Assembly: GCA_002269645.1 (NCBI GenBank)
Contig: NIVC01001470.1
Coordinates: forward strand, 1 to 64,000
Length of the DNA stretch: 64,000 nucleotides
Source: Macrostomum lignano
Taxonomy: Eukaryota
Direction: 5' to 3'
Part shown: one piece after another, positions 1 to 47,955 of the stretch
Layout: every line of letters starts with the position of its first letter
How positions within the stretch are numbered: position 1 is the first letter of the stretch
The notes under the pieces: generated by a model
What the model was told of the DNA's origin: nothing
The model's input: the letters and a program-made list of their open reading frames with translations, nothing else
Database searches by the model: none
Position numbers and translations under genes: made by a program

Positions 1-719
1 TATTTGCCTTATTTAGAGTACTTTTTCTATCTATTTTCTACTTCTATTGTTCGTATCAGTAGTAGTACTCGTAATAATACATACACGTGAAGGAAAATAA
101 ATATACCTTACTATTATGAACAGCCAATTCATGGCTCTGATTCACTGTTGCCAGGAGCAGTAATCCAGCTAATATTTGTAAAAATATTTTCCTTTTGTGC
201 GTTTTCAGTTTGTTTCGCAGGTCTGAAACTAAATAAATACACATAAAGTTTTATTATAATAATACAAGTTGTTCTTTCATTGTTATTTTTCTGAAGTCAA
301 CGAGTTACTTAACTGATTTTTGCATTCCTTTTGCCTGCATGATTTGACAAGCAACCCCGACTAGAATTTTAATACACTCAATGCAAGAAGTTTTTAAAAT
401 TTGTATCACTGATTAGCTCGTGTGTTGCTTAAATGATCACTGATCAATATCAATTTCGACCATAATACGTGTGCGTGTATTGATTTTGCATGTATACCAT
501 CTATATGTGGTTGACTCAGAGTGGATTATAGTTTCAGGACAACAACGTGAGAAAAAAACAGCATGGGATAGCTGATGCTGCACTATATTATGCATGTACA
601 TGTAGATATTTAGCAGACCATTTAAGACCTATAACTCAAGGGTGTCGCCACGTGGGGGGGATGGGGATCATGTCCCCCCCCCCCGTGAAAGTCAATATTT
701 GCTTCAGGGCGACAAATAT

Positions 720-1581
720 TGATGTGTTCCTTATTACCCGACTTTCGATAATCAAGGAACAATCACTTCTAGCTCAACAGCTAGGCAACCCAGTAAGTCA
801 AACGAAGGTATTCAATTACCTTTAATCCGGATTTGAATTTCTTGAGTAGTTCTCGCTAGAACTTGTCAGTAGATCTCGTAGATCAGGCGCCTTGATTCTT
901 CAGTTGCTCTGGTCCTGGTTCCTCTTGTACTTCCGATAAGTTCTTCCGGCCGGTATCTTCCGTCAGGACCAATCAGAGGCCTCGTAGCAACAATGGGTAC
1001 CCTGCGCCAAACTGCGGTCTAAATTAAGCCTCCTTCTTCTAGCAGTGCCTCTATGCACTCTAGGTATAGCTCCGGAAACCACTGATAGTCCTCTAAGATC
1101 TATCAGGGGCAGTCCTTCTGGAGACTGCAACCAATGGAGTCTAAACAGACTCAAGAGTCTCAACAGACTCAATTAGACTCAAGTCTCAATAGACTTGAGC
1201 GAGACGTCTCTAACACAACGGCGCAAATAAGGAAGGCTTACCGCAACAACTCGACCGAGTCTCGATTGACTTGGTAGATCAGGAAGTCCTCCTAAGGCTT
1301 CCTCTTCGGAGCGCTCCTCTTCCGTGGGGAGAATGGCTCCGGTACCGCTTCAGATCGCTTGTATTTATAGACAAGTTTTTGATCCAAAATAGTATCATGA
1401 CAATTCACGTGTTGCGCTAAAAGGGGAAAATGGCTCATGGCGTATTATTCTGGTAACATCTTTTTCTGGTAGCGTGATTCATTCAAAGCTTAGGCGCACA
1501 TGCGTGTACTTACTTACTTATAGTAGTATTATACGATTATCTTCTTTTTTCCTTTTTTAACGGGAGGTAGAACACTCTACA
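720..1581 (-). repeat. 3' LTR (862 bp)
   Basis: Matches 11529-12392 except for two single-G indels seen by eye. Minus strand starts TGTAGAGTG and ends GAACACATCA. Confidence 0.96.
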
Positions 1582-1584
1582 AAA

Positions 1585-1596
1585 TCTCCCTTTTTT
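1585..1596 (-). other. Polypurine tract (AAAAAAGGGAGA)
   Basis: Purine run 3 nt upstream of the 3' LTR on the element's sense strand. Confidence 0.8.
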
Positions 1597-1823
1597 ACGA
1601 AAAAACTCGTCCCGAGTTTTAACAATGAAATAAAAATCTTGGGTAATTGAATTATTCCATACTTTAACTTTAAATTGGTTACATAATTCTCTTTATTAAC
1701 ATATATGCACGTAATATACATTGTGTGTTAATAAAGGTTAGTGGTGTTGAGTCCACGCTCAGTTAAAGTTAATCATGTCTTCTGCCGGGGATACCTGCTG
1801 TCCTCGCGCTGCTGCCGAGGCAT

Positions 1824-2456
1824 TCAGCCGAAGCTTGTCCTGAGCAGGCTGCTCACCTGATGCGTGGTTCGCGCCACCAGGGATGCCACTGCCCAGTACA
1901 GCGACTGAAACTTAGTGAATCGCGGATCCTCGGTCCGCTCCAGCAAAAGCAGATAGGCCTCTATGGTCGTAAGCGGTTCTGCTGTACGCACCATAGTCCT
2001 GGCGATGTCTAGTAACCACCGCCAGTCGGCCTGATGCTGAAGCGGCCATGGCCACGTTCGTACGGCGACGGCCAGCTGTTCCAGGGTTAGCTCATCCGGC
2101 TCCGCCAGCGTTAGCTCCGGTACGGCGAGCATCGGTGCCAGTAGTACGGATGCTGTGTTGGACAGCGGAGCCAGGCACACGGTGCACGTCATGATGTCTC
2201 GTGCACCGTACCGCTGAAGACAGCTGAAACACACCCAATGCCGATTTGAACAGAGTCGTACATTGGGCTGGTCGCCGCAAAGGGCACATTGGACCCGCGG
2301 TCTGCGACAGACGGGGCAGGCGGTAAGGATCGTCACGTCGCCAATTTCTCGCGCCCGCTCGTCGCAGGGGAAGCACACCTGGTGCCCCCATTCACAAGTC
2401 GGGAGCATCGGCTCCCGTGCCTCGAGGCAGCAGGGGCAGGTATCCATCTCGGTCAT
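1824..2456 (-). CDS. Accessory ORF B: tandem double RING finger (C3HC4, C-x3-H spacing) protein, 210 aa
   Basis: CPCC-x10-CEWGH-x2-CFPC-x15-CPVC and CALC-x8-CSNRH-x2-CFSC-x11-CTVC. ATG at 2456 is immediately preceded by a branch point and CAG acceptor. Lies inside the LTR element. Confidence 0.85.
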   Translation of the reverse strand: MTEMDTCPCCLEAREPMLPTCEWGHQVCFPCDERAREIGDVTILTACPVCRRPRVQCALCGDQPNVRLCSNRHWVCFSCLQRYGARDIMTCTVCLAPLSNTASVLLAPMLAVPELTLAEPDELTLEQLAVAVRTWPWPLQHQADWRWLLDIARTMVRTAEPLTTIEAYLLLLERTEDPRFTKFQSLYWAVASLVARTTHQVSSLLRTSFG

Positions 2457-2526
2457 CTGTGGGCGATAGGTATAGGTATAGTTAGAACGATTGAGGATTA
2501 TTCAAGATACGTAACAAGCATATGTT

Positions 2527-3195
2527 CTATCGGTGAGACCTAAAAAGCCAAATAAAATAGCTACGTGAGAGCACTAATCGTTTAAGCGCGTGGCAGTATA
2601 CGTGTAGCGTCCAGTGAAATGATTCGTGGTCATGCAAAAACTGCCGCAACCGTCGCTCAATCTCCAAGGGTGACATATGACGCAAAAATCCTTGATTTCT
2701 ATGAGCATATAATAGTAGCTGTCGTCGCGACCGCTGAACGAAGCGAGGTACAGGCCAAAACTCCAGCCGCCGTTCGATACTCATAGCGGTTAAGGTGTGC
2801 ATAGTGTAAACGGATAAACAACGCGCTGGGTCAGGTATAATCCGACACCATTTCTTAAAAGTGTTTTCGCGGGGCATACTGTTACATAAGGGGCATCCTA
2901 TAATGCCCCTACTAGCGGTTTGCTTCAAACAGTGCATGCAAATAAAATGTTGGTGGTTACAATATTGAAACGTGCGCCAAGAATAACAATAGGCACATTG
3001 TCGCAAACTATCTCTACAGAGGGGACAACTCTGCCAGGGCTGAATATAGTGTGAATCACTTAAACATTGTCCGCAAACTTTATGTCCATTGATGCAAATA
3101 GTCGGTGGCTTGACAGCCAAGTCATCAGTTAAACATATCGGGCAGTCATATAGCTGCTGAGGCTGGGGCGCCTGTTTTGACAGTGCGTTGCCCAT
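2527..3195 (-). CDS. Accessory ORF A: N-myristoylation-signal, tandem double RING finger protein, 222 aa from ATG 3195
   Basis: The track start at 3207 is TTG; the first ATG gives MGNALSK. Fingers are CPIC-x12-CINGH-x2-CGQC-x12-CPLC and CAYC-x8-CNHQH-x2-CMHC-x11-CPLC. Confidence 0.85.
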   Translation of the reverse strand: MGNALSKQAPQPQQLYDCPICLTDDLAVKPPTICINGHKVCGQCLSDSHYIQPWQSCPLCRDSLRQCAYCYSWRTFQYCNHQHFICMHCLKQTASRGIIGCPLCNSMPRENTFKKWCRIIPDPARCLSVYTMHTLTAMSIERRLEFWPVPRFVQRSRRQLLLYAHRNQGFLRHMSPLEIERRLRQFLHDHESFHWTLHVYCHALKRLVLSRSYFIWLFRSHR

Positions 3196-3315
3196 AATTG
3201 TCGTCAATTTGTCGCTGTCTTTGTGTCGCTCGGATTAGTCGCCTTTTACGACAAGCTTGCGAAGCTGTAGTGCTATTCTTTATCCCGGTCACTACACGGG
3301 GTTGTTCTCTAAACT

Positions 3316-6300
3316 CTAGCGTGGTCGTAGGTTGTAGCCATGTGGCTGGCTCACATCTGTCGTTTGAGTCTCCTCGTGCTTCGTCGCGATGTGGCGGTTC
3401 GTTGAACGCGTGCGATCAGCGTTGTCTAATGTCGGTAGAAACGTCGCTGTGTCAGTGTTGATCTTCTTTAGTCGATGAATGTGTACGTAGAACTGGTGCT
3501 GATGTGGATCTTGTACATTAGCCAGGCGTGCCGTTGTTGGTGACGTTAGTTGGACCACTCGATAGGGTCCTTTGTACTTCTGTGCATGTTTATGCGTCTG
3601 CTGTGGCGGGTAGTGTAGGTAGACGATGTCGCCGGCCGTCAGGGTTGTCGATCTCGCGTCGTTGCCGGTGGTCAGAGCCACCTGGTTGTCAATGTTGTGC
3701 TTGGCGATCTTCCATGCGAGGTGTAGTTGCGTGACGAATTTCTGAATGGAAGTCGGTACTTCCACGTACTGCGATGGTAGCAATTGCTGTGCGAGCAGAT
3801 TCGGCGGTTGGAAGTCTCGTCCAAACATTAGGAAGAATGGCGTATTGTCCGTTGATCGATGAATAGCGCTGTTGTAGGCCATTGTTACAGATTGCAGGTA
3901 GATGATCCAGTCTTCCGGCTGTTGGTGCGCGAAATGTGTAATCATCTCGTGCAGGTTGCGGTGAAACCGTTCAACCATGTTTGCCTTCGGATTGTAGGTC
4001 GATGTGTAGATCTGCGTAATGTTGAGAATCCTTACGACTTGCTGAAACAGTTGCGATGTAAACTGCGATCCGTTGTCCGATGTGAGGTTCTTCGGCGTGC
4101 CGTACTTGCAAATGATTTCGTTGAAGAAACTCATTGCCACTGTCTGAGCTGTGATGTCCGGTATCGGTATGGCGATAGCAAACTTCGAGAAGATATCCAA
4201 GGCGGTTAGAATGTAGGTGTAGGCGATGCCCTGGAGACAGCTCGGTGGTAGCGGTCCGGTGATGTCGATGCTTAGACAGTCCATTGTAGTCGACTTCGGA
4301 ATGGACTGTAGCTGCGGTTTCTGTCGTCGTCCTGTCTTTGATGCAGCACATGAATGGCAGTTGTTGCAATACTGCTTGATGTCGCCGTACATAGTTGGCC
4401 AAAAGTAGTATTGTTCCACTCTCGCGATGGTCTTTGCTGCCGACAGGTGTCCAGCGAGTGGGTTGTCGTGTAGCTCGTTGAGAATTGCTTGCCGAAACGA
4501 ATATGGTATGTAGATCTTGGGTTTATTGTCGCTCATCCAGTAGAGCCGTGACTTATTGATTGTTAGGTGTTGTCGTTGCTTGCGTAGGAATTTTCGTTCC
4601 ATGGGACTGAGTTTGATGTTCTTGTCGTCGTCTTTAACCGCTTGGTAGAAGTTGTCGCGCTCGGTTTCATCCACCAACTCCTTGATGTTAGGGATTGGAT
4701 GAATGGCGTTGACTTCATAGGCTCTTGACAGGGCGTCCGCGGCTTTGTTGGTAATTCCTGGTTTGTAGACGAGTTTGTAGTTGTAATCCTGGATCTTGAG
4801 TGTCATTCTGATGAGTCGGTTGTTGGTCTGTCCTTTTGTAGTTACGACGTAGGTCAATGGTGCATGATCCGTGCGTACTATCGTCTGTATTGGAGAACCA
4901 TAGATGTAGTAATGAAACTGTCGCAGGGCGAACAAGACTCCTAGTAGCTCTCGTTCCGTAGCTGACCACTTTGTTTCATTTGGTTTGAGTGCTCGACTGA
5001 CGTAGGCAATAGGTCGTTCCTTCTTGTCCTCGGTTTCCTGTAGTAGGACTGCTCCGAGTCCCGTTCCTGAGGCGTCTGTCTCGATGATGAAGGGCTTGTC
5101 GAAGTCCGGATGCTGTAGCAGTGCGTCTGATGTCAGCTGTCGTTTGATTTCGTCGAAACTTTCCTGTTGTCTCTGTGTCCAGTTGTCTTGCTTCCATTTG
5201 TCGAACTTGAGCAGGTCGTACAGTGGCTTTGCTGTCTTTGCGAAGTTAGGTAAGAACTTCCTGAAGTATTGCGCAAGTCCAAGGAATGATTGGACCTTCG
5301 TTATACTGGTTGGCGTAGGAAACTTCTTCACCTTTTCCACGTTGTCTGGGTCCGGTGAGATTCCTTTGGCTGTCACCTGATGTCCCAGGTAACGCACGTT
5401 GTCTCGGAAGAATTTGCATTTAGTTGGTTGTAGCTTCAGACCTTGGCGTTGAATGAGCGCTAGGGCCTTCTCCGTAGCTTCGTAGAGTCGCTCGAAATCC
5501 TCTCCGTAGGCTAAAATGTCGTCGACATAGTGCAGCAGGTTCGTGCATCCTGCTAGCATGTATGCTGTTAGTCGACTCATCGTTGCTGGGCTGTTGCTAA
5601 GTCCCATCGGCGATCGATTGTACTCGTATACTTGTCCATTGTAGGTTTTGAAAGCCGTGTACTGTCGTGACTCTTTCTCGATTTCAATTTGCCAAAATCC
5701 ATGACGTAGGTCGAACACCGTGAACAATTTTGCCGTGTTGAGCTTTGCTAGTAGTTCGGAGATCTTCGGTAGGCTTTGCTGATCCGTCGGTATGTACTTG
5801 TTCAACAGTCTGAAGTCGCATACGAGTCGTCTTTCGTTTGTCTCCTTCTTCTGTACCAGTAGGCACGGTGAGGAGTAAGCCGAAATAGCTTTGCTGATGA
5901 TGCCGTGCTTTAGCATTTTATCGATGATTTCGTCAAAGTGTTGTTGCAGATGCTTGGCGATCGGGTACGGCTTGCACTGAATTGGTTCCGTGTGCGGCAG
6001 AAGTTTGATTTCCTGTTTGATGTCCTTGGCTCGTCCGATGTCGTAATCATGATGGCAGAAGGCTTCGTTGTACTTCCACAACAGCTGTCGAACTTTCCTC
6101 TTTTGCTGTTCCGTAATCGGGCTGTCATCCAAATTGATCTTCTTTTGAAATTCTTCCTCTGTTAGTCGTGGAGTCGCTTGTTCAATCAGCATAACCGATG
6201 CTTGGGTGTTGAGATGACCGATGCACATTCCTTGTCGTAGATGAACCGTTTCTGTGTTCGGGTTGAAGATTTGTACTGGCAGTTGCTTATCCTTTGCAAC

Positions 6301-9300
6301 CAGCACTAGTGCCGTAGGCATCATGATTTGATGTTTTGCCGTGACTCTCCTGTGTGGATCAAATATCATTGCTTCATCTGCCGCGCTGGTCGTTTTCGCT
6401 CTGACCCAGCATGCGCTTTCAGGCTGGATAATGACATCTTGCTGCAGAGTTACTTTCGGTAGTACTCGAATCTGGTTGATCAGCGGTTGCTCCACCGTGT
6501 CGATCCTAAACGTTTGCTTGTTGAAGTCGAAGGTCAATGGTAGTTGAAGCTGCTTGAACGTGTCGATTCCAACGATGACGTCTTGGTTTGGTAGTCTGTC
6601 GATGATGTACGTCGGGACCGTCAGCTGTTTATTAGCAATTTTCAAGTCGATATCTGCTTTTCCTAGGATGTTGAGTGAATGTCCTCCTGCTCCTGCAACT
6701 GCGATTGCTGCTGGTCGTACCGCGAGTCGTAGCTTGTTGCATAATTGTTGCGAGATGACTGTGATCGAGCTGCCTGAATCCAGTAGTGCTCGACATGGCA
6801 AGTTGTTGACAATGACCTGAGCCATTGCTTTGCCAATCTCGGCGTGTAGCGTACAGACGTAGTTTTCCGGCCATTTTGGCTCGTGCTGTTCTGCTTGATA
6901 GTTGGGTGGTTGTATCCTTGGTGCCGTTGGTGTTGTCGGAATCGATGGATATAGCCGCGTTGCTAGTGTCGGTTGCCCTTGAACCTCACAATGTGCAGTT
7001 TCTGTTAGTTCTAAACTGTTGTCGCTTTCCGTTGTCGTTCTTTGCATTATGGCATTCACTGTCTTCTTAGCTCTTGGACAAGTTTGACTGAAGCACCGTA
7101 CGATCGATGAAATGATGAAGATTGCCGTGACAATCCACACAATGCAAGCACCGTAGAAGATGAATCCTTGATAGAGACTGCCTCTTCCATTGAGCAGCTC
7201 CCAGAAGCTATTTGTCCAAAATGATTTGATGGCGCTGTCCATTGAAACAAGGACGGGAAATCTTCCTGTCCCGGTTCCTTTGTCCTTTCTTGTGAACAGC
7301 TGGTGAATCATCTTGCGTTGGGTGATGAACGCTTGCAAGAAGTCGTTGATCGTCCATCCTGGTGTTATCTCGTCAAGTTGGATATCGGCGAATGGCGTAT
7401 ACTTCGTTCTGTTGAATCGGATTTTCAAATCCTCCATGTCGTAGTTTTCGTCGACGATTACTTCCGGTTCTGTGACGTTTGCTGTCGTTCCAGTTGTTTT
7501 GATGACGTGTAGTGCATTGTCCAGTTGATAGTAGTTTACTGCCGTGGTGCAAGGTCTCGGTATTGCGGTGCCAACGATGATGTTGTGTACCGTGTCCAAG
7601 AATCCCTGAATTCGTTTTCCTTCGTAGAACGCTTCAATCCTTGGCTTATCGTAGCAGGTTGTTGACGTGTTTGACGGCAAGATGTTAAAGTGCTGTATCG
7701 GCGTGCACTTGTATATCAACAGATGCTCGTATATTGGAACTGCCAAAACGTTCGTCATTCCGGTGATTTTACGAAAAGTCATCGTAGGGTTGACATAGTA
7801 GTTTTGTCTGGCATAATTTAAGTTGATTGCGTGCATTTTGCAAGTTAGCTGGACCAGTGTTCGATGCAAGTGGTTTAACTGGTTGTGTAGATTGTGATCC
7901 AAAGCCGTTATCTTTGCTGACAACAGCCGGTTTGACACCAGTTTGGGACGTTCGATGTCACGTCGTCTTCTATTCTGTTTTTCTTGTTGCTGATACGTTC
8001 CATTGATGATTGCCAAGAAGGTTTGTTTGTCTTCATCCTTTACGTAGACTGGTATCTCTTGTTCCGAGATGAATAGTGTCTTGTCTGTATCCTTGCATTT
8101 CAGTTTTTGCTCGACTGGTTTCTTTTGAAACGTCAGTGCCAAGTCTCCTGACTTTGCCAAAAACGTATTTGACAGTAGTCCTCCTTCAACTGTGTGATAC
8201 TTTTGAAGCTTGCAGTCAATTTCCGGCTCAACTTCCCACGCGAAGAAGTATTGTCGTGATTTGTACGGTTCCTCATAGTGTGATTGTGCTCTGTGCTCAA
8301 TCTGCCATCGATAGTCTTGATGATATGTTGGACTCAGTGGTAGACTGTGTAGTTCTTCCTTCCGTAGAATCGGCGTTGGACACCATCCTTCACTGTATCG
8401 ACATTCGCTTAGTTGCAGCTGTAACGATTCCATTTTCTCGTACGGATTGTAGTAGAATGGAATATTTCTGATCAAGTAGCTGTTGCGTGCCATATATTCT
8501 TTCCATTTTCCGAAGAAGTGAATATATCGACCGTTGGCTGAATTCTTTGTTCTGAACAGCTGTGCGTTGCCGACCTTCTCATCTGGTTCCAGTTCACCAT
8601 CCTTTGAAAATAGTGTTTGATTCCATTGTAGGCATTCCGCGTGCGACACATGTAGCTCATGTTGTTTAAATCGGATCCGGTTCCATTGTCCGCGCCAAAC
8701 TTTTTCCACCAGGTGCTTGTCTCTGAAGCATACTATCCCGTGTTGTCGATGCTTCTTGATGTTAGCCTTGTAGAGATCGAGTGTAATCTTCTTTGGTTTT
8801 GTCTGGTTTGTCTTGAAGTAACTGCATTTGATGTCGGTTGGTATCTTGTAGATCATCGGTTGGATATGCGCATCCGTTGGACAAATCATTGGCTTTTCCG
8901 TTGCCGTTGCTTTGGCGACTACTGCTATCAGTAGTATCACGATGATCCAGAATAGCCAGTTTTTCCACTTCTTGGATTTTGCCGTTGTCCTTGCTGGCAT
9001 TGGCTGCGATCGCCATTCGTTATCTTCCATGTCCGCATCATATTCTTTCGGTTGTTCCATTGGCTGATCCAGGCGGAAGGCTTCTGATTCGCTTTGCTTT
9101 TTGGTTATTTCATTATCTTCGTCTGCGGCTTCTTCCGATGTTTCCGTTGTTTCACTCCATTGCGTTTGGTATCTTTTCTCTGTCTTGTAGTCGACCGTTT
9201 GAATATAGGCTTCACCATTTCGTTTGTATCGGATCTCGTAGCATTCGTCGCTGTCGGAACTCGGCTTTTCTTTCACCTGTTCTTTTTCCATTTCTTCATC

Positions 9301-10812
9301 TTTCCATTGTATTTCGTAGCCTTGATCGCTGTCGGAACTTAGATTCTCCGCTCTCGGTTCTTCCTGCATTCCTCTTTCGGCTTGGTAGTCGTTCGTGTCA
9401 TCACGCACCTCGCAGTCGTGGTCGTTGCCGTAACTTCTACATTCTTCTTCTTCTTTCATTTCTTTGTCTTTCATGCTCGTTTTGTCGTCATCCACTGTTG
9501 TCGATTCATAGTTGTTTTCTTCGCCGGTTTTCATCTTTTCTTCGTTGCCGATGTCGCTCTCCGCCTCCTCCCTTGTCTTGTGATTTACTTTCTTCCTGTT
9601 TTCTCTGCTGTCTCCGGTGGTCTCTTTTAATTTGATCATTTCGGTTTCATTCGTCTCTTTCGTGTTGTCAGTGTTGTCCTCGTGCGTCGTCTTCTTTTCG
9701 ATCAAGCTGATGTCAAGTTCCGGGACTGTGAAGTCCATTTCCAAGTCGTCAATTGTGAACACTTGCTGTTCTTGCTGTTCATTTTCCGGTGTGTACGTGA
9801 TGGCATTCGCGTATCGTGGCATTGCTTGCGTCGGCTGTCTTTGTGTGTATCTGACGTTGCGTGGCCTGTAGCCATTACTTCTGAAGCGGCCTTCGTTTCC
9901 GAAGCGGCCATCATTTCCGGAGCGGTCATTATTTCCGAAGCGTCTATCATTTCCGAAGCGTCTCATTCCTTGTTGTTGGCGATTTTGATAGTGCTGCCAT
10001 GGTTTCTGCGGCTTCTGATTGTTGAATATCTGTCGCGGCTTGTCGTATCTTGTTGACCAATGAGGACAATTAATCTGATAATGTCCTTCTTGTCCGCAGT
10101 AGTAACATCTGGCTGAGGCTTGTTCATTTCGTCTTTTTTGTTCGGCGATAGCAGCTGTCTGGTGCTGCATTAACTTGTTTAGTTGCTGCGTCAGTTTCTG
10201 CACTTCATTGTTGCCTGTCGTCATTAATGGGGCACTGGCTTCCCATTGCATTCCGCAACGCAAAAGGTCTTCTTCGGTTTCGATATTTTCACGCAAAAGT
10301 CTATCCCGAAGTGACGGCTGTGCGTTGTTTATTACGTGCAGGATGAGGTTTTGTTCACGATCCATCAATCGTTGTCTTTCTCTGGCGGCCAATTCTGCCG
10401 CTCCCAGTGGTGGTTGGTCCGCAGCTTGCAGCGGTGGCTGATGCAGTGCCTTAATTATCTGGCGGATATCGTCCACAAAGGCGAGGAAGGATTCTGTTGC
10501 TTGCATCCTTCTGTTATGCAACTTGTGCAGCAGCACTGATCTGTTTGTGCCGCAACGGTTGAAATGCGCGCGCAGTTGAATGATTAGTGCTGGATAATTT
10601 TGCTGTGTTGCCGCATCCAGCTTGCCGTAAATTTCTCGCGCAGTACCTTGGAGAAGAGGTGGCAGCAGCTGTGCCTTCTCTGGATTTTGTAGGTTGTATT
10701 CCCTACATACCAGGTCAAAATGGTCGACAAATGTGTTAAAATCTTTCTCCATCGAGAAAGTACCGACCGTTTCTTTGATGTCTCTGTGTACCGTTGGATT
10801 GCGCCGCGCCAT
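3316..10812 (-). CDS. gag-env-pol: Gag-Env(gB-like)-Pol polyprotein, 2498 aa, single frame
   Basis: Gag capsid-like N-terminus and zinc knuckle CYYCGQEGHYQINC (10066-10107); signal/TM WLFWIIVILLIAVVAKA (8908-8958); furin site RRRR (7960-7971); TM (7099-7167); protease LLDSGS (6772-6780); RT YVDD (5518-5529); RNase H TDASG (~5070); integrase H-H-C-C, D,D(35)E core and KGPY. Confidence 0.97.
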   Translation of the reverse strand: MARRNPTVHRDIKETVGTFSMEKDFNTFVDHFDLVCREYNLQNPEKAQLLPPLLQGTAREIYGKLDAATQQNYPALIIQLRAHFNRCGTNRSVLLHKLHNRRMQATESFLAFVDDIRQIIKALHQPPLQAADQPPLGAAELAARERQRLMDREQNLILHVINNAQPSLRDRLLRENIETEEDLLRCGMQWEASAPLMTTGNNEVQKLTQQLNKLMQHQTAAIAEQKRRNEQASARCYYCGQEGHYQINCPHWSTRYDKPRQIFNNQKPQKPWQHYQNRQQQGMRRFGNDRRFGNNDRSGNDGRFGNEGRFRSNGYRPRNVRYTQRQPTQAMPRYANAITYTPENEQQEQQVFTIDDLEMDFTVPELDISLIEKKTTHEDNTDNTKETNETEMIKLKETTGDSRENRKKVNHKTREEAESDIGNEEKMKTGEENNYESTTVDDDKTSMKDKEMKEEEECRSYGNDHDCEVRDDTNDYQAERGMQEEPRAENLSSDSDQGYEIQWKDEEMEKEQVKEKPSSDSDECYEIRYKRNGEAYIQTVDYKTEKRYQTQWSETTETSEEAADEDNEITKKQSESEAFRLDQPMEQPKEYDADMEDNEWRSQPMPARTTAKSKKWKNWLFWIIVILLIAVVAKATATEKPMICPTDAHIQPMIYKIPTDIKCSYFKTNQTKPKKITLDLYKANIKKHRQHGIVCFRDKHLVEKVWRGQWNRIRFKQHELHVSHAECLQWNQTLFSKDGELEPDEKVGNAQLFRTKNSANGRYIHFFGKWKEYMARNSYLIRNIPFYYNPYEKMESLQLQLSECRYSEGWCPTPILRKEELHSLPLSPTYHQDYRWQIEHRAQSHYEEPYKSRQYFFAWEVEPEIDCKLQKYHTVEGGLLSNTFLAKSGDLALTFQKKPVEQKLKCKDTDKTLFISEQEIPVYVKDEDKQTFLAIINGTYQQQEKQNRRRRDIERPKLVSNRLLSAKITALDHNLHNQLNHLHRTLVQLTCKMHAINLNYARQNYYVNPTMTFRKITGMTNVLAVPIYEHLLIYKCTPIQHFNILPSNTSTTCYDKPRIEAFYEGKRIQGFLDTVHNIIVGTAIPRPCTTAVNYYQLDNALHVIKTTGTTANVTEPEVIVDENYDMEDLKIRFNRTKYTPFADIQLDEITPGWTINDFLQAFITQRKMIHQLFTRKDKGTGTGRFPVLVSMDSAIKSFWTNSFWELLNGRGSLYQGFIFYGACIVWIVTAIFIISSIVRCFSQTCPRAKKTVNAIMQRTTTESDNSLELTETAHCEVQGQPTLATRLYPSIPTTPTAPRIQPPNYQAEQHEPKWPENYVCTLHAEIGKAMAQVIVNNLPCRALLDSGSSITVISQQLCNKLRLAVRPAAIAVAGAGGHSLNILGKADIDLKIANKQLTVPTYIIDRLPNQDVIVGIDTFKQLQLPLTFDFNKQTFRIDTVEQPLINQIRVLPKVTLQQDVIIQPESACWVRAKTTSAADEAMIFDPHRRVTAKHQIMMPTALVLVAKDKQLPVQIFNPNTETVHLRQGMCIGHLNTQASVMLIEQATPRLTEEEFQKKINLDDSPITEQQKRKVRQLLWKYNEAFCHHDYDIGRAKDIKQEIKLLPHTEPIQCKPYPIAKHLQQHFDEIIDKMLKHGIISKAISAYSSPCLLVQKKETNERRLVCDFRLLNKYIPTDQQSLPKISELLAKLNTAKLFTVFDLRHGFWQIEIEKESRQYTAFKTYNGQVYEYNRSPMGLSNSPATMSRLTAYMLAGCTNLLHYVDDILAYGEDFERLYEATEKALALIQRQGLKLQPTKCKFFRDNVRYLGHQVTAKGISPDPDNVEKVKKFPTPTSITKVQSFLGLAQYFRKFLPNFAKTAKPLYDLLKFDKWKQDNWTQRQQESFDEIKRQLTSDALLQHPDFDKPFIIETDASGTGLGAVLLQETEDKKERPIAYVSRALKPNETKWSATERELLGVLFALRQFHYYIYGSPIQTIVRTDHAPLTYVVTTKGQTNNRLIRMTLKIQDYNYKLVYKPGITNKAADALSRAYEVNAIHPIPNIKELVDETERDNFYQAVKDDDKNIKLSPMERKFLRKQRQHLTINKSRLYWMSDNKPKIYIPYSFRQAILNELHDNPLAGHLSAAKTIARVEQYYFWPTMYGDIKQYCNNCHSCAASKTGRRQKPQLQSIPKSTTMDCLSIDITGPLPPSCLQGIAYTYILTALDIFSKFAIAIPIPDITAQTVAMSFFNEIICKYGTPKNLTSDNGSQFTSQLFQQVVRILNITQIYTSTYNPKANMVERFHRNLHEMITHFAHQQPEDWIIYLQSVTMAYNSAIHRSTDNTPFFLMFGRDFQPPNLLAQQLLPSQYVEVPTSIQKFVTQLHLAWKIAKHNIDNQVALTTGNDARSTTLTAGDIVYLHYPPQQTHKHAQKYKGPYRVVQLTSPTTARLANVQDPHQHQFYVHIHRLKKINTDTATFLPTLDNADRTRSTNRHIATKHEETQTTDVSQPHGYNLRPR
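7099..8958 (-). other. env: Envelope glycoprotein domain, class III fusion (herpesvirus gB/chuvirus G-like), inside the polyprotein
   Basis: Cys-rich ectodomain with N-glycosylation sequons (NQT, NGT, NTS, NVT, NRT) and an RRRR site. VNPTMTFRKITGMTNVLAVPIYEHLLIYKCTPI and CYDKPRIEAFYEGKRIQGFL...PRPC parallel, from memory, the gB NP...C and CYSRP...GQL...EPC blocks. Not confirmed by HMM. Confidence 0.8.
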
Positions 10813-11508
10813 GTTGTTGATAGGGTAGAACGGTAGTTCAAGATCTGGATCGATTTGTAACGGATCGTCCAGTGTGGTGTTTGCCTCGGAATAAACCTCG
10901 ACTGTAACGAATTGCCTTGTGGTGTCGATTTGTTATTCGCTGGCCTCGGATGCGGTGTGGCTTGCTGCCACTGGTTGTCCTCAAATGAACTTGTTCTGTT
11001 CGCTTGCTGATTTCGCACTTATGCGGCGTCCCGCAAAGTGTATCTTCAAGTTGAAGTGGACTTGTCTTCTTGCTTTGCAAAGTCTTTCTTCTCTTCTTTG
11101 ACTCTCTCTCTTTTGTCAATTAACTCTGCTCTCCACGAAGTTTCAATTAATTTCGGTTTTGTTTTAGTTTTTGTGCCGGCAAAATGTTTCAGTTATTTTT
11201 TGTTTGTTTTGCGTCGACGATTCTTTTTATTTTTGGTTTGTTTTCAGTGTACCGACGAAGTTAATTTCGGTTTTGTTTTAAACTCACACTTGCTCGAGCT
11301 CGTCAAAACAAAATTTTAACACGCGTGCTCAAACTGTACTCAAATTTGACAGGTGCTCAAACCTGTACACCAAATTTTACTCGAGTTTCAAAACGTAACG
11401 GACCTAAAAAGTGTTAACTCTAACACGTGCGCGCAAAATTAATGAAGTCGCTCTGTCGTCACTTTACAATAGCTTGGCCAGGCTATTGCTCAAGGTTTGA
11501 GTAGTGCC

Positions 11509-11526
11509 GAGAGGGCGAGATCACCA
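11509..11526 (-). other. Primer binding site (TGGTGATCTCGCCCTCTC), primer tRNA not assigned
   Basis: Starts with TGG 2 nt after the 5' LTR end (CA). Confidence 0.7.
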
Positions 11527-11528
11527 AT

Positions 11529-12392
11529 TGATGTGTTCCTTATTACCCGACTTTCGATAATCAAGGAACAATCACTTCTAGCTCAACAGCTAGGCAACCC
11601 AGTAAGTCAAACGAAGGTATTCAATTACCTTTAATCCGGATTTGAATTTCTTGAGTAGTTCTCGCTAGGAACTTGTCAGTAGATCTCGTAGATCAGGCGC
11701 CTTGATTCTTCAGTTGCTCTGGTCCTGGTTCCTCTTGTACTTCCGATAAGTTCTTCCGGCCGGTATCTTCCGTCAGGACCAATCAGAGGCCTCGTAGCAA
11801 CAATGGGTACCCTGCGCCAAACTGCGGTCTAAATTAAGCCTCCTTCTTCTAGCAGTGCCTCTATGCACTCTAGGTATAGCTCCGGAAACCACTGATAGTC
11901 CTCTAAGATCTATCAGGGGCAGTCCTTCTGGAGACTGCAACCAATGGAGTCTAAACAGACTCAAGAGTCTCAACAGACTCAATTAGACTCAAGTCTCAAT
12001 AGACTTGAGCGAGACGTCTCTAACACAACGGGCGCAAATAAGGAAGGCTTACCGCAACAACTCGACCGAGTCTCGATTGACTTGGTAGATCAGGAAGTCC
12101 TCCTAAGGCTTCCTCTTCGGAGCGCTCCTCTTCCGTGGGGAGAATGGCTCCGGTACCGCTTCAGATCGCTTGTATTTATAGACAAGTTTTTGATCCAAAA
12201 TAGTATCATGACAATTCACGTGTTGCGCTAAAAGGGGAAAATGGCTCATGGCGTATTATTCTGGTAACATCTTTTTCTGGTAGCGTGATTCATTCAAAGC
12301 TTAGGCGCACATGCGTGTACTTACTTACTTATAGTAGTATTATACGATTATCTTCTTTTTTCCTTTTTTAACGGGAGGTAGAACACTCTACA
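11529..12392 (-). repeat. 5' LTR (864 bp) with TATA box (TATAAATA at 12180-12173)
   Basis: Direct repeat of 720-1581, followed by the PBS. An ATTAAA poly(A)-like hexamer lies near the LTR 3' end. Confidence 0.96.
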
Positions 12393-12980
12393 ATATATAG
12401 CGCCTGCGGCACCAAACACGAGTTCCTGCAGCGCAAAAAATGCCTGCGACGCCAAATGAGCGCTGACAACACCGATTCTAAAAATAATGTAAAATGTTAA
12501 AATGTATAATTCTTGCGGCTTAATTTGTTCCCCACCATAAAATCAATCTTGTGACGCCCCTGCCACAACAGTACATGTAACTCACAAACCTTCTGTCGTA
12601 AATGCACATGCAAGTCGTATATAGCCAGTAGAAGTGACTAAAAAGAGAATCAAAGTTGTAGATGGGGTTGGTACATGTTTGTTAGCCCGACAAACGACGA
12701 GAGTGTAGGCCTGAAGCCATAACCATGCCTAGACTCATTCGTCTTTTTCTCTTTTGATTTCCATTTACCTTAAGATATTGAGTTTAAATACTTTTAGTAT
12801 TTTTAACATTAATTTACTTGCACTTCTTATTCATACAGCGAAAATATTTTTACTTCCTTTTAAATATTAGTTGACGTATGCTCCGGTATCTGAGGCTTAC
12901 TCTATGTTTCAAGTAAATAATTGTCGTAAAACACGAAAATGTTCATGTATTACTACCACATTAAAGACAGTGTTGCCTAG

Positions 12981-13138: not shown

Positions 13139-14911
13139 ATGTGGCTGTCGAGCTTTTTGGCATTTGCTCTGCTTGCTCTCGCATGCGGTGAAGTTTACTT
13201 CAAGGAGGAGTTTTTAGATGGTAAGTTAGTTCTCGCTCTGACGTTTATTTTGTTTAGATTCTCAAATTCCCTTGTGTTGCTGCAATACTAGAATAGGGCA
13301 TTGTCTTGTTGGTTTTCTTCATTTCAACCATATCAGAATATTAAAGTAACTAAAAATAGTATTGAAATCATTCCATTCTTTTTAACTTTGCACATTCAAG
13401 CAGTTAAAATAACCCCCTTGTGTTAGCTTTGCATTTTGTTCTAAAAGAATAAACTGTGGTTACTGGTTTACTTTTTTATAGTTTTTGAAAGATAATTCAT
13501 TAAAAAGGCTTCTATTATTGAGTATGAGAGAGAAAGGAAGTATAGGTTTCTAGCTAGCTACTTTAATTTAATTGTAACATATTATAAGATTGTTTTATAA
13601 CTTCACAATTTTTTTGTTTCCTTAAAGACTATTTGTATATATATATATTGCCTATCTTTACATTTTTCTATGTTTCTCCTAATGTAAAATCCTTTGATTT
13701 AAATATTTATTTTTTTCTTTTAATTTTAATTATATGCTTTGCTAATTTGTCTTCACAAAATATTTATTTCAGAGTCATGGAAGGATCGGTGGGTAGAGTC
13801 AACCTACAAGGGTAATGACCAAGGCAAATGGGAATGGACTGCTGGCAAGTTCTACAATGATGCTGAAAAGGACAAGGGAATAAAAACCTCCCAGGATGCC
13901 AAATTTTATGGCATCAGTGCCAAGTTCAACTCTCCATTCTCCAATGCTGGCAAGACTCTGGTGATCCAATTCCAGGTCAAGCATGAGCAGAACATTGACT
14001 GCGGTGGTGGCTATGTCAAAGTCCTTGGCAGCGATGTTGACCAGAAGAACTTCCACGGCGACACACCCTACAAGATCATGTTTGGTCCTGATATCTGCGG
14101 CCCTGGCACTAAGAAGGTGCACGTTATCTTCAACTACAAGGGCAAGAATTTGCTCACCAAGAAGGAGATTCGCTGCAAGGATGACGAGCTAAGCCACCTG
14201 TACACCCTGATTGTGAAGCCTGACAACACCTACGAGGTGCTGATTGACAACGAGCGAGCCGAAGGTGGAGAACTCGAGGCCGACTGGGACTTCCTGCCAC
14301 CCAAGAAGATCAAGGATCCGGCCGCCAAGAAGCCAGACGACTGGGACGAGCGCGAGAAAATTGACGACCCGAACGACAAGAAGCCGGAGGACTGGGACAA
14401 GCCCAAGACCATCCCGGATCCCAAGGCCAAGAAGCCGGACGACTGGGACGACGAGATGGACGGCGAATGGGAGCCGCCGATGATTGACAACCCGGACTAC
14501 AAGGGCGACTGGAAGCCCAAGCAGATTGACAACCCGGCCTACAAGGGCAAGTGGATCCACCCGGAGATTGACAACCCGGACTACTCGCCGGACCCCGAGC
14601 TGTACAAGTACACCGACATCGGCGCCATCGGCTTCGACCTGTGGCAGGTGAAATCTGGCTCCATCTTCGACAACGTCTTCGTTGGCGACGACCCGGCCGA
14701 GGCCAAGGCCTTCGCCGACGAGACCTTCAAGAAGACCGTCGAAGGCGAGAAGAAGATGAAGGAGAAGCAGGACGAGGAGGACAAGAAGAAGGCGGAGGAA
14801 GAGGAGAAGAAGCGCAAAGAGGAGGAGGAGAAGAAGAAGGCCGAGGAGGGCGACAAGAAGGAAGCGGACAAGAAGGAGGACGACAAGAAGGACACCAAGG
14901 ACGAGCTGTAG
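13139..14911 (+). CDS. CALR: Calreticulin, two exons (13139-13220, 13773-14911)
   Basis: Exon 1 encodes the signal peptide MWLSSFLAFALLALACG-EVYFKEEFLD, with GTAAGT donor and TTTCAG acceptor in phase 1. Contains KHEQNIDCGGGYVK, IMFGPDICG, P-domain repeats, an acidic tail and C-terminal KDEL. AATAAA at 15029. Confidence 0.98.
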
Positions 14912-19295: not shown

Positions 19296-19881
19296 GCCCC
19301 TTCAGCGCAAACAGGCACATGAAAACAGAACATGAAAGATCAAAGCTCATGAAACCCTGCAAACTCGCCCATGCAGCAGTCAGGTGCAGCCGGAAAGCTC
19401 CTGGAACAAGCGGGCAGCGATCTACCCGGGCCCAACGTTCAACGAGGCCGTGGTGGCCCCTGTTTGGAGCCCGTTGATGACGCGGCTGCAGGCCGATCAA
19501 GAGGCTGACCAAACTCGGACTGGTCTGTGCGTAAATGAAAATGTCATGATGACTATACGACTGCGATTGCTACATTTTTTCGAAAAGCAAGTACTGGAAG
19601 CAAAACAAGTTGCCTGAAAAATTTATCCATTAGGTTCACTGACCGACCAGCGGTCTCGTGTGAACATCGCGCGGACACGATGACCTACTCAGCATTCGGC
19701 CGGTCCTTGTCGCGCGGCGTATCGAATGTCGGCACCGGCCGTGGAGGCTCGGCCGATGAGCAGCAGGCCAAGCGGCTGCGTATGGAGAATGAGAGAAAAG
19801 CCGGAGTGCAGTGGGTCATGAAGCCGCTCAGGCAGTTTCAGGTGGACAGGAAGGTGAGGCCGGTCTGTCTGCAATCAATTA

Positions 19882-20363
<482 letters not shown>

Positions 20364-21539
20364 TAAACTGCAACATTAGCTACCAAGGTGTATTTTTATC
20401 ATGTGCCTATCCCAAAACTCCCATCCCAATGCAGGGTCAGCAGAGAAATCAGGGCCCATTCTCGCGAGAATTCGTCGTACACGCCAGAGCGCCGCACAGC
20501 TGGATGCGTCTAAAATGGGGACCGCACTACTGACTACGCTATCTGATTAGTAGCACTGCACGCTAAGCTGCTTATTTATTATGAAATACAATGCAACTTT
20601 TGGGCTAGCACAGCACTTTATTTTATCAACAATAACAGTTAGTTGAAAATAACTAAAAAACGACAGCATTTAAACCAGTAGTGATATCAATATTGAACTA
20701 ATAGATAGATATAATAAACAGTGTTCCATTACAGACGATTGTTTGTCATGCAAAAGCGAAGTAAACTGCAGTCTCTCAAATGCTAATCTTGGATTTTTGA
20801 GATATAAAACTCAATAAGTGTAGTAGCAAGTATAGTCAGTATAGCTTATTATATAGGAATTCTTAATAAAGCATTGGCAGAACAAAACGACATGGACCTA
20901 AACCGCATTGATTTAAACAAACTGAAACACATAAGTATAGCTGGAATGCCACTTGATACATAGATTTATAGTTGGCAAAAAAAACTCACATCTAGTTAAA
21001 TTTAAACAAAAGCCAGAATAATCAGTTGTTTTTTAGCACGCCAGCGCATCAAGAAGTGCATTAGTTAGACAATTGCAACTAAACGAAAGAATTAGCGAAA
21101 ATTTCAAACGGTTGTTTTACATTTACTTAAACAATTTCTATAATTTTCTATATCGCATTCACAATGCTCCTTGGTAACCCGCGCCACAATGTACAGTGTA
21201 CTAGAAGAAGTACATCGTTCTATTTATAGCTTTTCAATGGACGTAGAAAGGGCAGGGAGTTAGGCGGGGTGGAGGGATGGGGTGGATTGATAACAGACCG
21301 AGAGTACGCGGGAAGTGGAGAGAATATTTGAATGTACATGCTACAACGAATAGAAATGTACGAAGGGAATGGGGTTCATTGTAAAGTACATATCGCGAAA
21401 ATTGTAAAGTACATATTGTAGTGTACATTGTAAAGTACATATCGTCACGAGTCGAAATTTAGCAGTTTAGATATGTTGTTTTTGCCTTTTTTCAACAAAC
21501 TGTCAGTAAAAGTAAGCCAATGAGTTGCTAATTAAACAT

Positions 21540-39617: not shown

Positions 39618-42600
39618 TCAAGCCAGCAGCGTCTGCAGCGAGTCCATGCCGATCAATATGGCCGGATTGCTGCGAAAGTAGGAGCAGAAATCTTCCCAAC
39701 TGATGACGCCGTCCCCGTCGGCGTCCAGCTGGCGGAAAACGGCCTCCGCTCGCTCCTCCACCGTCACCGAAGTCACTGGCGGACGGACTCGATGTCCGAG
39801 AAGGTCGTAAACGGAGCTCACCACTTCGAAGACCTCCCGCCTGTTGATCTCGCCGTCCTTGTTGGTGTCGTACATGTTGAAGATCCACCCGAGGCGTTCT
39901 TCCCGACTGCCTTTCAGCAGGGTGTTGAGGCATAGGGCGAACTGCTCAAAGCTAACGGAGCCCGTGCGGCCCCGATCAAAGCCGCAGAACACGAAATGGG
40001 CGAAAGTGTGCGCATTTCCCAACGGGAAGATCTGCGCCAGGATTTGTTCCAGCACCTCCTCTTGCATCAATCCTAAAGGTGGGAGCATTAGAGTGAGTCG
40101 TAATCGAGTTGAAAAAATCTACACATCTGAATGCTGAACTCAAGCCACAATATTCGTATTTTCTGCCGCAATGTAAATTCCTATCGATCTATCTCTAATT
40201 CGTTCCAGCCAACCCCTAACAACCCCAAGCCCTGTCCCTGCCTGTGCAAACCGGCCAACCTCACTCCACTCCTGCCCCTCCAGCAACCCCAGGCTCTGTC
40301 CCTGCCTGTACAAACTAGCCAACCTCATTCCACTCCTGCCCCTCCAGCAGCCCCAAGCCCTGTCCCTGCCTGTGCAAACCGGCCAACCTCACTCCACTCC
40401 TGCCCCTCCAGCAACCCAGGCTCTGTCCCTGCCTGTACAAACTAGCTAACCTCATTCCACTCCTGCCCCTCCAGCAACCCCAGGCTCTGTCCCTGCCTGT
40501 ACAAACTAGCTAACCTCATTCCACTCCTGCCCCTCCAGCAACCCCAGGCTCTGTCCCTGCCTGTACAAACTAGCTAACCTCATTCCACTCCTGCCCCTCC
40601 AGCAACCCCAAGCCCTGTCCCTGCCTGTACAAACTAGCCAACCTCACTCCACTTCTGCCCCTCCAGCAACCCCAAGCCCTGTCCCTGCCTGTACAAACTA
40701 GCCAAACTCACTCCACTTCTGCCCCTCCAGCAACCCCAAGCCCTGTCCCTGCCTGTACAAACTAGCTAACCTCATTCCACTCCTGCCCCTCCAGCAACCC
40801 CAAGCCCTGTCCCTGCCTGTACAAACTAGCCAACCTCATTCCACTCCTGCCCCTCCAGCAACCCCAGGCTCTTTCTCTGCCTGTACAAACTGGCCAACCT
40901 CACTTCACTTTGGCTAGTAAACATTTTTTTCTTTTATGCCTCATGCTTCACTCATGAGCGTATATGATTGTTTCTCCTATTTGTCTCCCTGCCACAGTAT
41001 CTATGCAGGAAAACTGAACCACTGGTATGAAGAAAAATAAAGAAGTTTCCGTATTTTTTCTTTTGCAATTTGTCTTGAAAGACACTATAGAGATACTGAG
41101 CCGGAGAAGGCAATGCTAGTCAAAGTGGCCAGATTAGAATGCCAATCGTGAGAATAAGAAAATGACTTCAAGGCACTTCAACCAGGGAGCTAAAATAGAA
41201 CCAGGACTGGGAGCTGAAAAAAACACTGGCTGAGCTTTCTCAATGCTGCAGCAGCCACTGAAAAAAAGCAAACTGACAAACTGGCAGTCCCGTCACGAAG
41301 TGCGGAGAGAGATAGGAAATTGGATCCGACACTCTCCCGCTTGGCCTTCTTTGCTACTTCTTAGGCAGCTCCCCTATTCCTTCTTTCTCAGATCCGGTCC
41401 TACCCCCCTCTAAGCTGTCTCTCTCCCAATCCCCCAGCCTATTCCCTGCGCTGCGATCCCAGCAGCACAGTTGCTACGCGACGGCAGATGCGCTCGATCG
41501 AGAAATTTGGAAGGGAATCGAAAGCTTTATAATTTAAGTACCGGATCAAGCAAATGATTTAGCTATAATTACTATTTAGCTATTATTCCCATCATTTTCC
41601 TAAAAGCTTCTATCTGTCATATTTCCAACCAACAATGTCTCTGACTAACGACTAATGATAATTAACTAACCTCATGGCTCCTGACCTCATGGCTCCTGAC
41701 CTCATGGCTCCTGACCTCATGGCTCCTGACCTCATGGCTCCTGACCTCATGGCTCCTGACCTCATGGCTCCTGACCTCATGGCTCCTGACCTCATGGCTC
41801 CTGACCTCATGGCTCCTGACCTCATGGCTCCTGACCTCATGGCTCCTGACCTCATGGCTCCTGACCTCATGGCTCCTGACCTCATGGCTCCTGACCTCAT
41901 GGCTCCTGACCTCATGGCTCCTGACCTCATGGCTCCTGACCTCATGGCTCCTGACCTCATGGCTCCTGACCTCATGGCTCCTGACCTCATGGCTCCTGAC
42001 CTCATGGCTCCTGACCTCATGGCTCCTGACCTCATGGCTCCTGACCTCATGGCTCCTGACCTCATGGCTCCTGACCTCATGGCTCCTGACCTCATGGCTC
42101 CTGACCTCATGGCTCCTGACCTCATGGCTCCTGACCTCATGGCTCCTGACCTCATGGCTCCTGACCTCATGGCTCCTGACCTCATGGCTCCTGACCTCAT
42201 GGCTCCTGACCTCATGGCTCCTGACCTCATGGCTCCTGACCTCATGGCTCCTGACCTCATGGCTCCTGACCTCATGGCTCCTGACCTCATGGCTCCTGAC
42301 CTCATGGCTCCTGACCTCATGGCTCCTGACCTCATGGCTCCTGACCTCATGGCTCCTGACCTCATGGCTCCTGACCTCATGGCTCCTGACCTCATGGCTC
42401 CTGACCTCATGGCTCCTGACCTCATGGCTCCTGACCTCATGGCTCCTGACCTCATGGCTCCTGACCTCATGGCTCCTGACCTCATGGCTCCTGACCTCAT
42501 GGCTCCTGACCTCATGGCTCCTGACCTCATGGCTCCTGACCTCATGGCTCCTGACCTCATGGCTCCTGACCTCATGGCTCCTGACCTCATGGCTCCTGAC

Positions 42601-44461: not shown

Positions 44462-44480
44462 GATTGGCTGCCTGCTTTGG

Positions 44481-44776
<296 letters not shown>

Positions 44777-45140
44777 GTAAACACGCGACAGTTATGGGGC
44801 CGCATCAAGTGTTAGAAAACGCACAGCCTTCTCAGCCAATGACGGGTCTCATAGCACATTGGATAAATGCTGCATGCGTGGGCCTCAGTCTTCTCGAACA
44901 TGGAAATAATCTTTTTTCCTGAGCAGCCAATCAAAGCTGTCTTTATGTGTATGTAATCCATTCAAATATTTATTTCTCAGGCCCCCAAATTTCACTGCAT
45001 TCGGAAATTTGATCCCTTTAAAAGGAATTCCAATTCGTCTGACATCCAACTGTCGTCAGATGTCTTCTCTCTGCGTTTTTTCTCCACTATCTTCCCCAGG
45101 GGAATCTCTGCGCTCGGATGTGGATGTGGATCGGCAGTCC

Positions 45141-45985
45141 ATGTCCACAATCCAATATCCAAAATCCATTATCCACAATCCAATATCCACAATCCAATGC
45201 CCACAATCCAATGTCCACAATCCAATATCCACAATCCAATATCCACAATCCAATATCCACAATTCAATGTCCACAATACAATATCCACAATCCAACATCC
45301 ACAATCCAATATCCACATACCAATATCCACAATCTAATATCCACAATCCATTATCCACAATCCAATGTCCACAATCCAATATCCACAATCCAAAATCCAC
45401 AATCCAATGTCCACAATCCAATATCCACAATCCATTATCCACAATCCAATGTCCACAATCCAATGTTCACAATCCAATGTCCACAATCCAATATCCACAA
45501 TCCAATGTCCACAATCCATTATCCAGAATCCAATATGCACAATCCAATATCCACAACCCAATATACACAATCCAAAATGCACAATCCAATGTTTACAATC
45601 CAATATGCACAATCCAATATACACAATCCAATATCCGCAATCCAATGTTCACAATCCAATATCCACAATCCAATATCCACTATCCAATATCCACAATCCA
45701 ATGTCCACAATCCAATATCCACAATCCATTATCCACAATCCAATGTCCACAATCCAATGTTCACAATCCAATGTCCACAATCCAATATCCACAATCCAAT
45801 GTCCACAATCCATTATCCAGAATCCAATATGCACAATCCAATATCCACAACCCAATATCCACAATCCAATGTCCACAATCCATTATCCACAATCCAATAT
45901 CCACAATCCAATGCCCACAATCCAATATCCACAATCCATTATCCACAAACCAATGTCCACAATACAATATCCACAAAACAATATT
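45141..45985 (+). repeat. 7/14-bp degenerate repeat (TCCACAA-TCCAATA)n
   Basis: Direct reading; higher-order block repeated near 45516 and 45811. Confidence 0.95.

Positions 45986-47484: not shown

Positions 47485-47955
<471 letters not shown>

Follow-up and report, generated by a model that had tools for sequence, protein, structure and literature searches.

The window analysed here is a stretch of 64,000 nucleotides (nt) from the flatworm Macrostomum lignano (NCBI GenBank assembly GCA_002269645.1, contig NIVC01001470.1, positions 1 to 64,000 of the forward strand). Its minus strand carries a retroelement with long terminal repeats (LTRs), in which Gag, Env and Pol share one open reading frame (ORF) and two genes for double-RING proteins, RING-A and RING-B, lie between pol and the 3' LTR. 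The features of this element, flanked by a target-site duplication (TSD), are as follows, in window positions and with ^ marking predicted splice junctions.

720..12392, minus strand: full-length Ty3/gypsy (Metaviridae) GAG-ENV-POL element, from ORFs, Pfam domains, LTR alignment and genomic copies
12393..12396, no strand: right copy of the TSD, ATAT, from flank comparison
11529..12392, minus strand: 5' LTR of 864 nt with a TATA box at ~12175-12180, from LTR alignment
12047..12055, minus strand: GCG^GTAAGC, the predicted major splice donor, following the TATA box by ~128 nt, from the motif and the junction used by gene model P0002
11513..11526, minus strand: primer-binding site (PBS) of 14 nt, exact complement of the 3' end of host tRNA-Val(AAC) plus CCA
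3316..10812, minus strand: polyprotein ORF of 2,498 amino acids (aa) without a stop: Gag, acidic linker, internal signal, Env, transmembrane helix (TM), protease (PR), reverse transcriptase (RT), RNase H (RH), integrase (IN)
10003..10812, minus strand: Gag region, containing a single CCHC zinc knuckle at aa 236-249
7111..8955, minus strand: Env, with a hydrophobic signal (aa 620-638), class III gB-like ectodomain, RRRR furin-type site (aa ~950), six N-glycosylation sequons and a TM anchor (aa 1216-1234), from sequence and profile evidence
3319..6825, minus strand: Pol with protease (LLDSGS), RT (YVDD), RNase H and integrase, in the order PR-RT-RH-IN
3237..3300, minus strand: conserved 64-nt non-coding block after the pol stop, holding the acceptor-like (C/T)ACAG^CT
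2527..3195, minus strand: RING-A (slot 1), 222 aa, with RING1 (C18-C60, linchpin R61), RING2 (C67-C104) and a helical C-terminal domain with an invariant WP
2457..2485, minus strand: predicted splice acceptor with its branch point, immediately ahead of the RING-B start codon
1824..2456, minus strand: RING-B (last slot), 210 aa, a RING-A paralogue (24% identity) with the same double-RING and helical architecture
1585..1596, minus strand: polypurine tract (PPT), ending 3 nt before the 3' LTR
720..1581, minus strand: 3' LTR, 862 nt as assembled, from LTR alignment
716..719, no strand: left copy of the TSD, ATAT, from flank comparison

Named protein records with 98-100% identity to the element's proteins were from M. 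lignano. The polyprotein contains the Pfam domains zf-CCHC, aspartyl protease, RVT_1, RNase H, Integrase_H2C2 and rve, and the TG...CA termini of the LTRs, the PBS, the PPT, the short TSD and the order of the pol domains are those of Ty3/gypsy elements. The nearest RT matches were ~35-41% identical, and the named ones among them were gypsy-type (our own tree was a quick one, built without GyDB references). An earlier note, made from the DNA letters alone, had described a perfect TSD, a PBS, a PPT and a stop-free ORF of 7.5 kb, and all of these were confirmed. Rfam gave no matches within positions 700-12500. An 18-nt tandem repeat lies in the gag-env linker (9871-9960), the length of which differs between subfamilies.

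The two window LTRs differ by no substitution and by two single-base gaps. These gaps, reported in the note as two single-G indels, are present in the assembly but are probably errors of it rather than biological differences. The longer form at both gap sites was found in both LTRs of three other full-length loci, one of which is the same insertion assembled twice, and in contigs of all four public runs (at full depth in three, with partial depth at one site in the fourth). Since other loci and run contigs contradict both gaps, the window LTRs are likely identical. The insertion site of the window was itself assembled twice (also in contig C1639, 99.9% identity over 14.7 kb). Over its full 11.67 kb the element aligns at 99.9% with three other loci, two of which are different sites with their own TSDs. 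A chimeric origin of the env and RING parts, a concern raised in the note, is thus excluded by full-length independent insertions and by coverage of the element in four public runs.

The copy count that the note had proposed showed a multi-copy element: among 40 scored env matches in genome G000, which set a lower bound on copies, at least 15 were ~100% identical and 25 were at 92-93%. At sites where both ends were read, matching TSDs of 4-5 bp flanked 14 two-LTR insertions and three apparent solo LTRs. The element has expanded recently and is active or was so very recently; the note's view of a very recent gypsy-type element holds in the light of the near-identical copies, the substitution-free LTRs and the TSDs at many sites. 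A 2015-style GenBank entry of M. lignano, 'retrovirus-related polyprotein' (P0155, ALD16272.1), is an Env-tail-Pol piece of the same family. Contigs C2121, C1130, C87, C272 and C4009 of G000 hold many tandem or nested copies and RING fragments and are possibly piRNA-cluster-like (piRNA, PIWI-interacting RNA).

Env lies between Gag and the protease. Judged from profile comparisons, it is a class III (gB-like) fusogen, the E-values being weak but concordant: the Atlas score to the rhabdo-G/Monjiviricetes/gB clusters was 0.96, five of six family Envs matched PF24664 (Monjiviricetes_fusion), at best with E 1.3e-8, and herpesvirus gB structures took the first three places among the PDB matches of a six-family Env profile (E 0.012-0.032). 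A phmmer search of Env against PDB gave no match, and the single-sequence structure model of Env was unusable (predicted local distance difference test, pLDDT, 34.5). Twelve Cys residues are invariant in Env across the six families. Two hydrophobic helices flank Env in four of six polyproteins, and the two most distant ones show the anchor alone at the threshold used. As a side observation, G000:C270:3204-11762 and C247 encode a GAG-ENV-POL polyprotein of 2,852 aa whose Env has, ahead of its furin site, a long mucin-like insertion rich in Thr.

This arrangement suggests that the unspliced RNA would be translated into one membrane-threaded polyprotein. Gag would be cytosolic, the internal signal would place the class III fusogen in the lumen of the endoplasmic reticulum, and the second TM helix would bring the chain back to the cytosol, leaving Pol hanging from the Env tail. 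Cleavage by signal peptidase, by furin and by the protease that the element encodes would then release the parts, as the sequence suggests. Such a single Gag-Env-Pol frame would imply that Pol is packaged via the Env tail. The anatomy shows replication by standard LTR retrotransposition, with tRNA-Val priming, the PPT and an integrase producing a 4-bp TSD.

The two accessory double-RING genes announced in the note hold up: each ORF has two C3HC4 motifs, and conservation indicates that they are real selected genes and not chance frames. RING-A had 151 matches in G000. Two or three paralogous RING ORFs lie between integrase and the 3' LTR in four families (pol ~71% identical to that of the window element), which form one RT clade (SH-aLRT, Shimodaira-Hasegawa-like approximate likelihood-ratio test, 100) and belong to a larger clade of eight GAG-ENV-POL families, with support of 99 (quick tree). 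Slot order is fixed and the slot-1 genes are orthologous between families. The 16 zinc ligands, P58, R61 and the WP are invariant in 15 of 15 RING ORFs, which share 20-73% identity with RING-A. The ratio of nonsynonymous to synonymous substitution rates (dN/dS) was 0.21, 0.28 and 0.29 for non-saturated close pairs. Between the window and a sister subfamily it was 0.09 (RING-A) and 0.19 (RING-B), with integrase at 0.03-0.05; values up to 0.51 came from distant, near-saturated pairs, and many pairs were saturated.

The other four of the eight families have no RING genes. In three of them the slot is taken by unrelated ORFs (253-318 aa), a pattern suggestive of an exchangeable accessory site as in complex retroviruses. 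These unexplained ORFs of distant GAG-ENV-POL families (G000 C1189:300795-301577, C4628:24268-25029, C1674:109952-110716 and C759:436599-437555) are of 253-260 aa in one family and 318 aa in another, and three that were tested gave no significant Pfam match.

The structure model of RING-A was confident (pLDDT 85.7). Its RING1 has the C3HC4 pattern and the RING fold, matches RING domains of E3 ubiquitin ligases weakly, and contains the CPxC loop and the linchpin Arg of the face that contacts the ubiquitin-loaded conjugating enzyme (E2~Ub). An Arg follows the last Cys of RING1 (CPxCR) in 19 of 19 sequences and the last Cys of RING2 in 0 of 19; directly after the last RING Cys is where we take the linchpin to be placed. 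RING1 resembles the RINGs of Sina/SIAH in 13 of 15 ORFs. The linchpin Arg is the catalytic position of RING E3 ligases (PMC12326332). For the C-terminal helical domain no clear fold match was obtained (best Z 4.6), which does not in itself make it a new fold.

A profile search of 1.84 billion proteins returned four full-length matches, namely one M. lignano gene model and three Logan proteins without a name. Two of the latter were compared with G000 and reached identities of no more than 42% and 33%; therefore, the tandem-RING family probably exists in other organisms. A word-based homologue search with RING-A found none at E<=0.001 among 93 candidates, scans of viral contigs and metagenomes found none, and exact look-up of three proteins in the protein collection found none of them. 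A full-length host gene of the tandem-RING architecture was not found, and every context examined had pol or LTR remains. On contig C1063 of G000, three RING ORFs beside Polinton-like genes had suggested a cassette common to a retrotransposon and a Polinton, a reading that was rejected: they are part of a C391-type element, present there with its integrase tail, RINGs and LTR, into which the Polinton has cut. That low-GC, Polinton/Maverick-like element (G000:C1063:103000-114700; L021, L022), which interrupts the 3' end of a sister errantivirus, holds pieces of a protein-primed DNA polymerase and capsid-like ORFs of 493 and 271 aa.

Splice signals are arranged around the cassette. The donor motif G^GTAAGC occurs 110-128 nt after the TATA box in 7/8 RING-clade LTRs and in neither of two non-RING LTRs; the LTRs with the motif include two groups not alignable to each other, and its chance occurrence is ~0.01 per LTR. 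An acceptor-like AG lies within 0-2 nt of the ATG in all seven slot-2 ORFs examined, and gene model P0002, which may be ab initio, joins the LTR donor to a RING-B acceptor. An LTR donor with acceptors before the ORFs suggests expression in the style of complex retroviruses. Stop-codon read-through from pol into RING-A was rejected as a route: pol and RING-A do share a frame, but another stop interrupts it 13 codons upstream of the ATG, which leaves 235 aa open.

Two kinds of derivatives were found. Some cassette-deleted copies retain an open polyprotein and LTRs that are 99.9-100% identical. Of 22 3' regions, selected mainly because they were truncated, RING-A was shortened to a frame of 70-144 aa in 18, full length in one and without a start match in three. 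Conversely, pol-less, non-autonomous derivatives (G000:C301:247806-254695, C525 and C1192) contain gag, half of env and almost no pol and keep both RING ORFs, with LTRs 100% identical in C301. Both patterns fit a product that acts in trans.

On balance, we lean slightly towards the view that the RING proteins are trans-acting accessory E3 ligases directed against host defence. One errantivirus clade would have gained a 3' cassette of two to three paralogous double-RING genes, most likely expressed from subgenomic RNAs spliced from the LTR donor. RING1 would bind E2~Ub, the conserved residues pointing to ligase activity, and the substrate, probably a silencing or restriction factor of the host, may be brought in by RING2 together with the helical domain, although the target is a guess. 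The fuller scenario, a complex-retrovirus layout that evolved independently, with the LTR donor serving a duplicated E3 cassette of the element's own, from a new tandem-RING protein family, that degrades host factors in trans and is exploited by cassette-deleted 'cheater' copies, is put forward tentatively, as a possibility to which we give somewhat less than an even chance.

Several observations weigh against a ligase aimed at the host. The cassette is not needed in cis, because many recent copies are without most of it, and copies without the cassette are favoured in the recent expansion; 43 of the 150 RING-A matches listed are truncated forms (23 ending near residue 162 and 20 at residue 90). 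On the expression side, one of the eight RING-clade LTRs (C391) has no donor motif. The contigs of the four public runs covered 30/30 bins; none of these runs is recorded as RNA, and genes cannot be ranked by the depth of contigs. Among the four joints listed from these contigs a canonical splice joint was not seen, only deletion-type ones, and of the 22 loose ends listed (out of 41) none fell in the RING ORFs. On the protein side, Foldseek found no match at E<=0.001, VIA Z did not exceed 4.6, RING Pfam scores were mostly under the curated cut-offs, and RING-B has a Cys at the usual E2-binding hydrophobic position.

Among the other explanations, the one that survives best, though we consider it unlikely, is that the RING proteins are Rev- or CERV-like regulators. 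They would bind RNA of the element, at the 64-nt block after pol or elsewhere, and would favour export or stability of the unspliced genome RNA, a transcript that has to get past the element's own strong donor and acceptors. The block is kept in 4/4 RING families but missing from L047-L060, the non-RING family loci; its survival in cassette-deleted copies is expected of a cis element served in trans. Cer1 of Caenorhabditis elegans offers a precedent with CERV, a spliced Cys-finger export factor (PMC10309623). However, the invariant linchpin Arg of RING1 points to E2 binding, the predicted fold of the block is no better than that of shuffles (z -0.97, with covariation drawn from six related sequences), and the block may simply be the splice acceptor of slot 1.

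We see little probability in a structural or budding role, be it as ligases aiding budding dependent on ESCRT (endosomal sorting complexes required for transport) or in the manner of the arenavirus Z protein, a myristoylated RING matrix protein. Gag is short and has no N-terminal glycine, and RING-A starts with MGNALS (window) or MGNAQS (C240 subfamily), which we take to fit the N-myristoylation consensus. Against this, MGxxxS is confined to this subfamily and absent from the slot-1 ORFs of the three other families, and four env-bearing families of the same clade do without RING.

That the RINGs are captured host or DNA-virus sequence, now neutral cargo undergoing loss, appears improbable and is largely refuted. 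Deleted variants do outnumber complete ones among the 150 RING-A matches listed, ten of which are full-length and stop-free at >=86% identity, and the likeness of RING1 to Sina/SIAH would suit a capture. Yet dN/dS is far under 1 with synonymous sites near saturation between families, the ligands are invariant across paralogues, slot order and slot-1 orthology are maintained, and no full-length host counterpart turned up. Selection for host benefit or copy interference (domestication or superinfection exclusion) is very improbable: RING ORFs do persist in pol-less derivatives and in the nested-copy clusters on C2121, C1130 and C87, but the RINGs are confined to LTR elements and follow the RT phylogeny, and the LTRs of the one pol-less copy that was checked are 100% identical, so its keeping of the RINGs may be a sign of youth.

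If the fuller scenario is true, an LTR retroelement would carry an E3 ligase of its own and not an adaptor, and its host would be a transgenic stem-cell model animal. Few self-encoded counter-defence proteins are known from animal retrotransposons, and a selected, duplicated E3 cassette on an enveloped gypsy element would give a direct handle on the host defences that need disabling. RNA interference, transgenesis and a described piRNA pathway (PMC4604429) open the role of the cassette to testing in M. lignano.

Elsewhere in the window, an intronless ORF with a KDEL end (13730-14911), which we take to encode a calreticulin-like protein, lies ~1.3 kb from the 5' LTR. Long simple-sequence or minisatellite arrays give spurious long ORFs at 19500-20500, 41650-43700, 44100-48300 and 58200-60700, and the exons between them presumably belong to host C2H2 zinc-finger, CLK-like kinase and EF-hand genes.

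The note had presented the element as a new endogenous retrovirus-like system, a claim that falls with the published record. A gB-type Env in GAG-ENV-POL order has been described in errantiviruses of nematodes, bryozoans and flatworms (Chary & Hayashi, eLife 2026, PMC13524379), a paper that also cites non-canonical nematode endogenous retroviruses (Sacco et al. 2022, known here through that citation). Its Supplementary file 1 lists Platyhelminthes_Rhabditophora_Mlig_errantivirus_2, with LTRs of 863/864 nt and 16 copies, classed as Ty3/gypsy by GyDB hidden Markov models. This entry and the window element have in common the host species, an HSV/gB-type Env (HSV, herpes simplex virus), the GAG-ENV-POL order, the LTR length, the PBS 12-mer and the multi-copy state, and from LTR length, PBS, host, Env type and copy features they very probably are the same family. 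They differ in LTR spacing, 9,727 nt in Mlig_errantivirus_2 versus 10,809 nt in the window element. Cassette-deleted copies in G000 have a spacing of 9,727-9,759 nt, a range that includes the published entry, and this may explain why the RINGs go unmentioned there. Thus, the gene order is already published and the family itself is not new.

The RING cassette, in contrast, is probably undescribed, so that of the family the note had named as a possible precedent, with the same gene order and RING ORFs, only the gene order is on record. The word 'RING' had no main-text matches in PMC13524379, its preprint, PMC5408684, PMC12801592, PMC4604429 and PMC12440569, and the passages listed for it from the PMC13524379 supplement were unrelated words. 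No RING ORF in an LTR element was described in the titles and abstract starts listed by the literature searches; Repbase, GyDB, Dfam and Sacco 2022 lay outside these searches, as did the earlier M. lignano LTR survey that PMC12801592 cites, the figures and GitHub data of the eLife paper, and the bioRxiv supplements, and the ORFs may be mentioned in any of these.

Compared with known systems, the window element shares its gene order and a class III Env on a Ty3/gypsy pol with the GAG-ENV-POL errantiviruses of Nematoda, Bryozoa and Platyhelminthes, for which, unlike here, the available text of PMC13524379 reports no 3' accessory cassette. LTR retrotransposons of bdelloid rotifers (Rodriguez et al. 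2017, PMC5408684) also have extra, captured ORFs downstream of pol, and spliced messages typically serve for their expression; their ORF3s, however, are GDSL esterases, DEDDy exonucleases, TM or coiled-coil proteins, and 'RING' and 'ubiquitin' gave no matches in the available text. C. elegans Cer1 resembles the window element in that it is of gypsy type, has gag and pol in a single frame and makes a spliced Cys-finger accessory protein (PMC10309623). CERV, however, with its G-like, multimerisation and helical domains, does not belong to the RING proteins, and PMC13524379 regards Cer1 as lacking env. Viral RING E3 ligases (herpesvirus ICP0 and those of nucleocytoplasmic large DNA viruses) and the cellular Sina/SIAH proteins have a C3HC4 RING with a linchpin Arg as in RING1, by weak structure and feature matches. 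These matches span one RING, whereas the tandem RING with the WP helical domain has no named full-length relative outside the host among 1.84 billion representatives.

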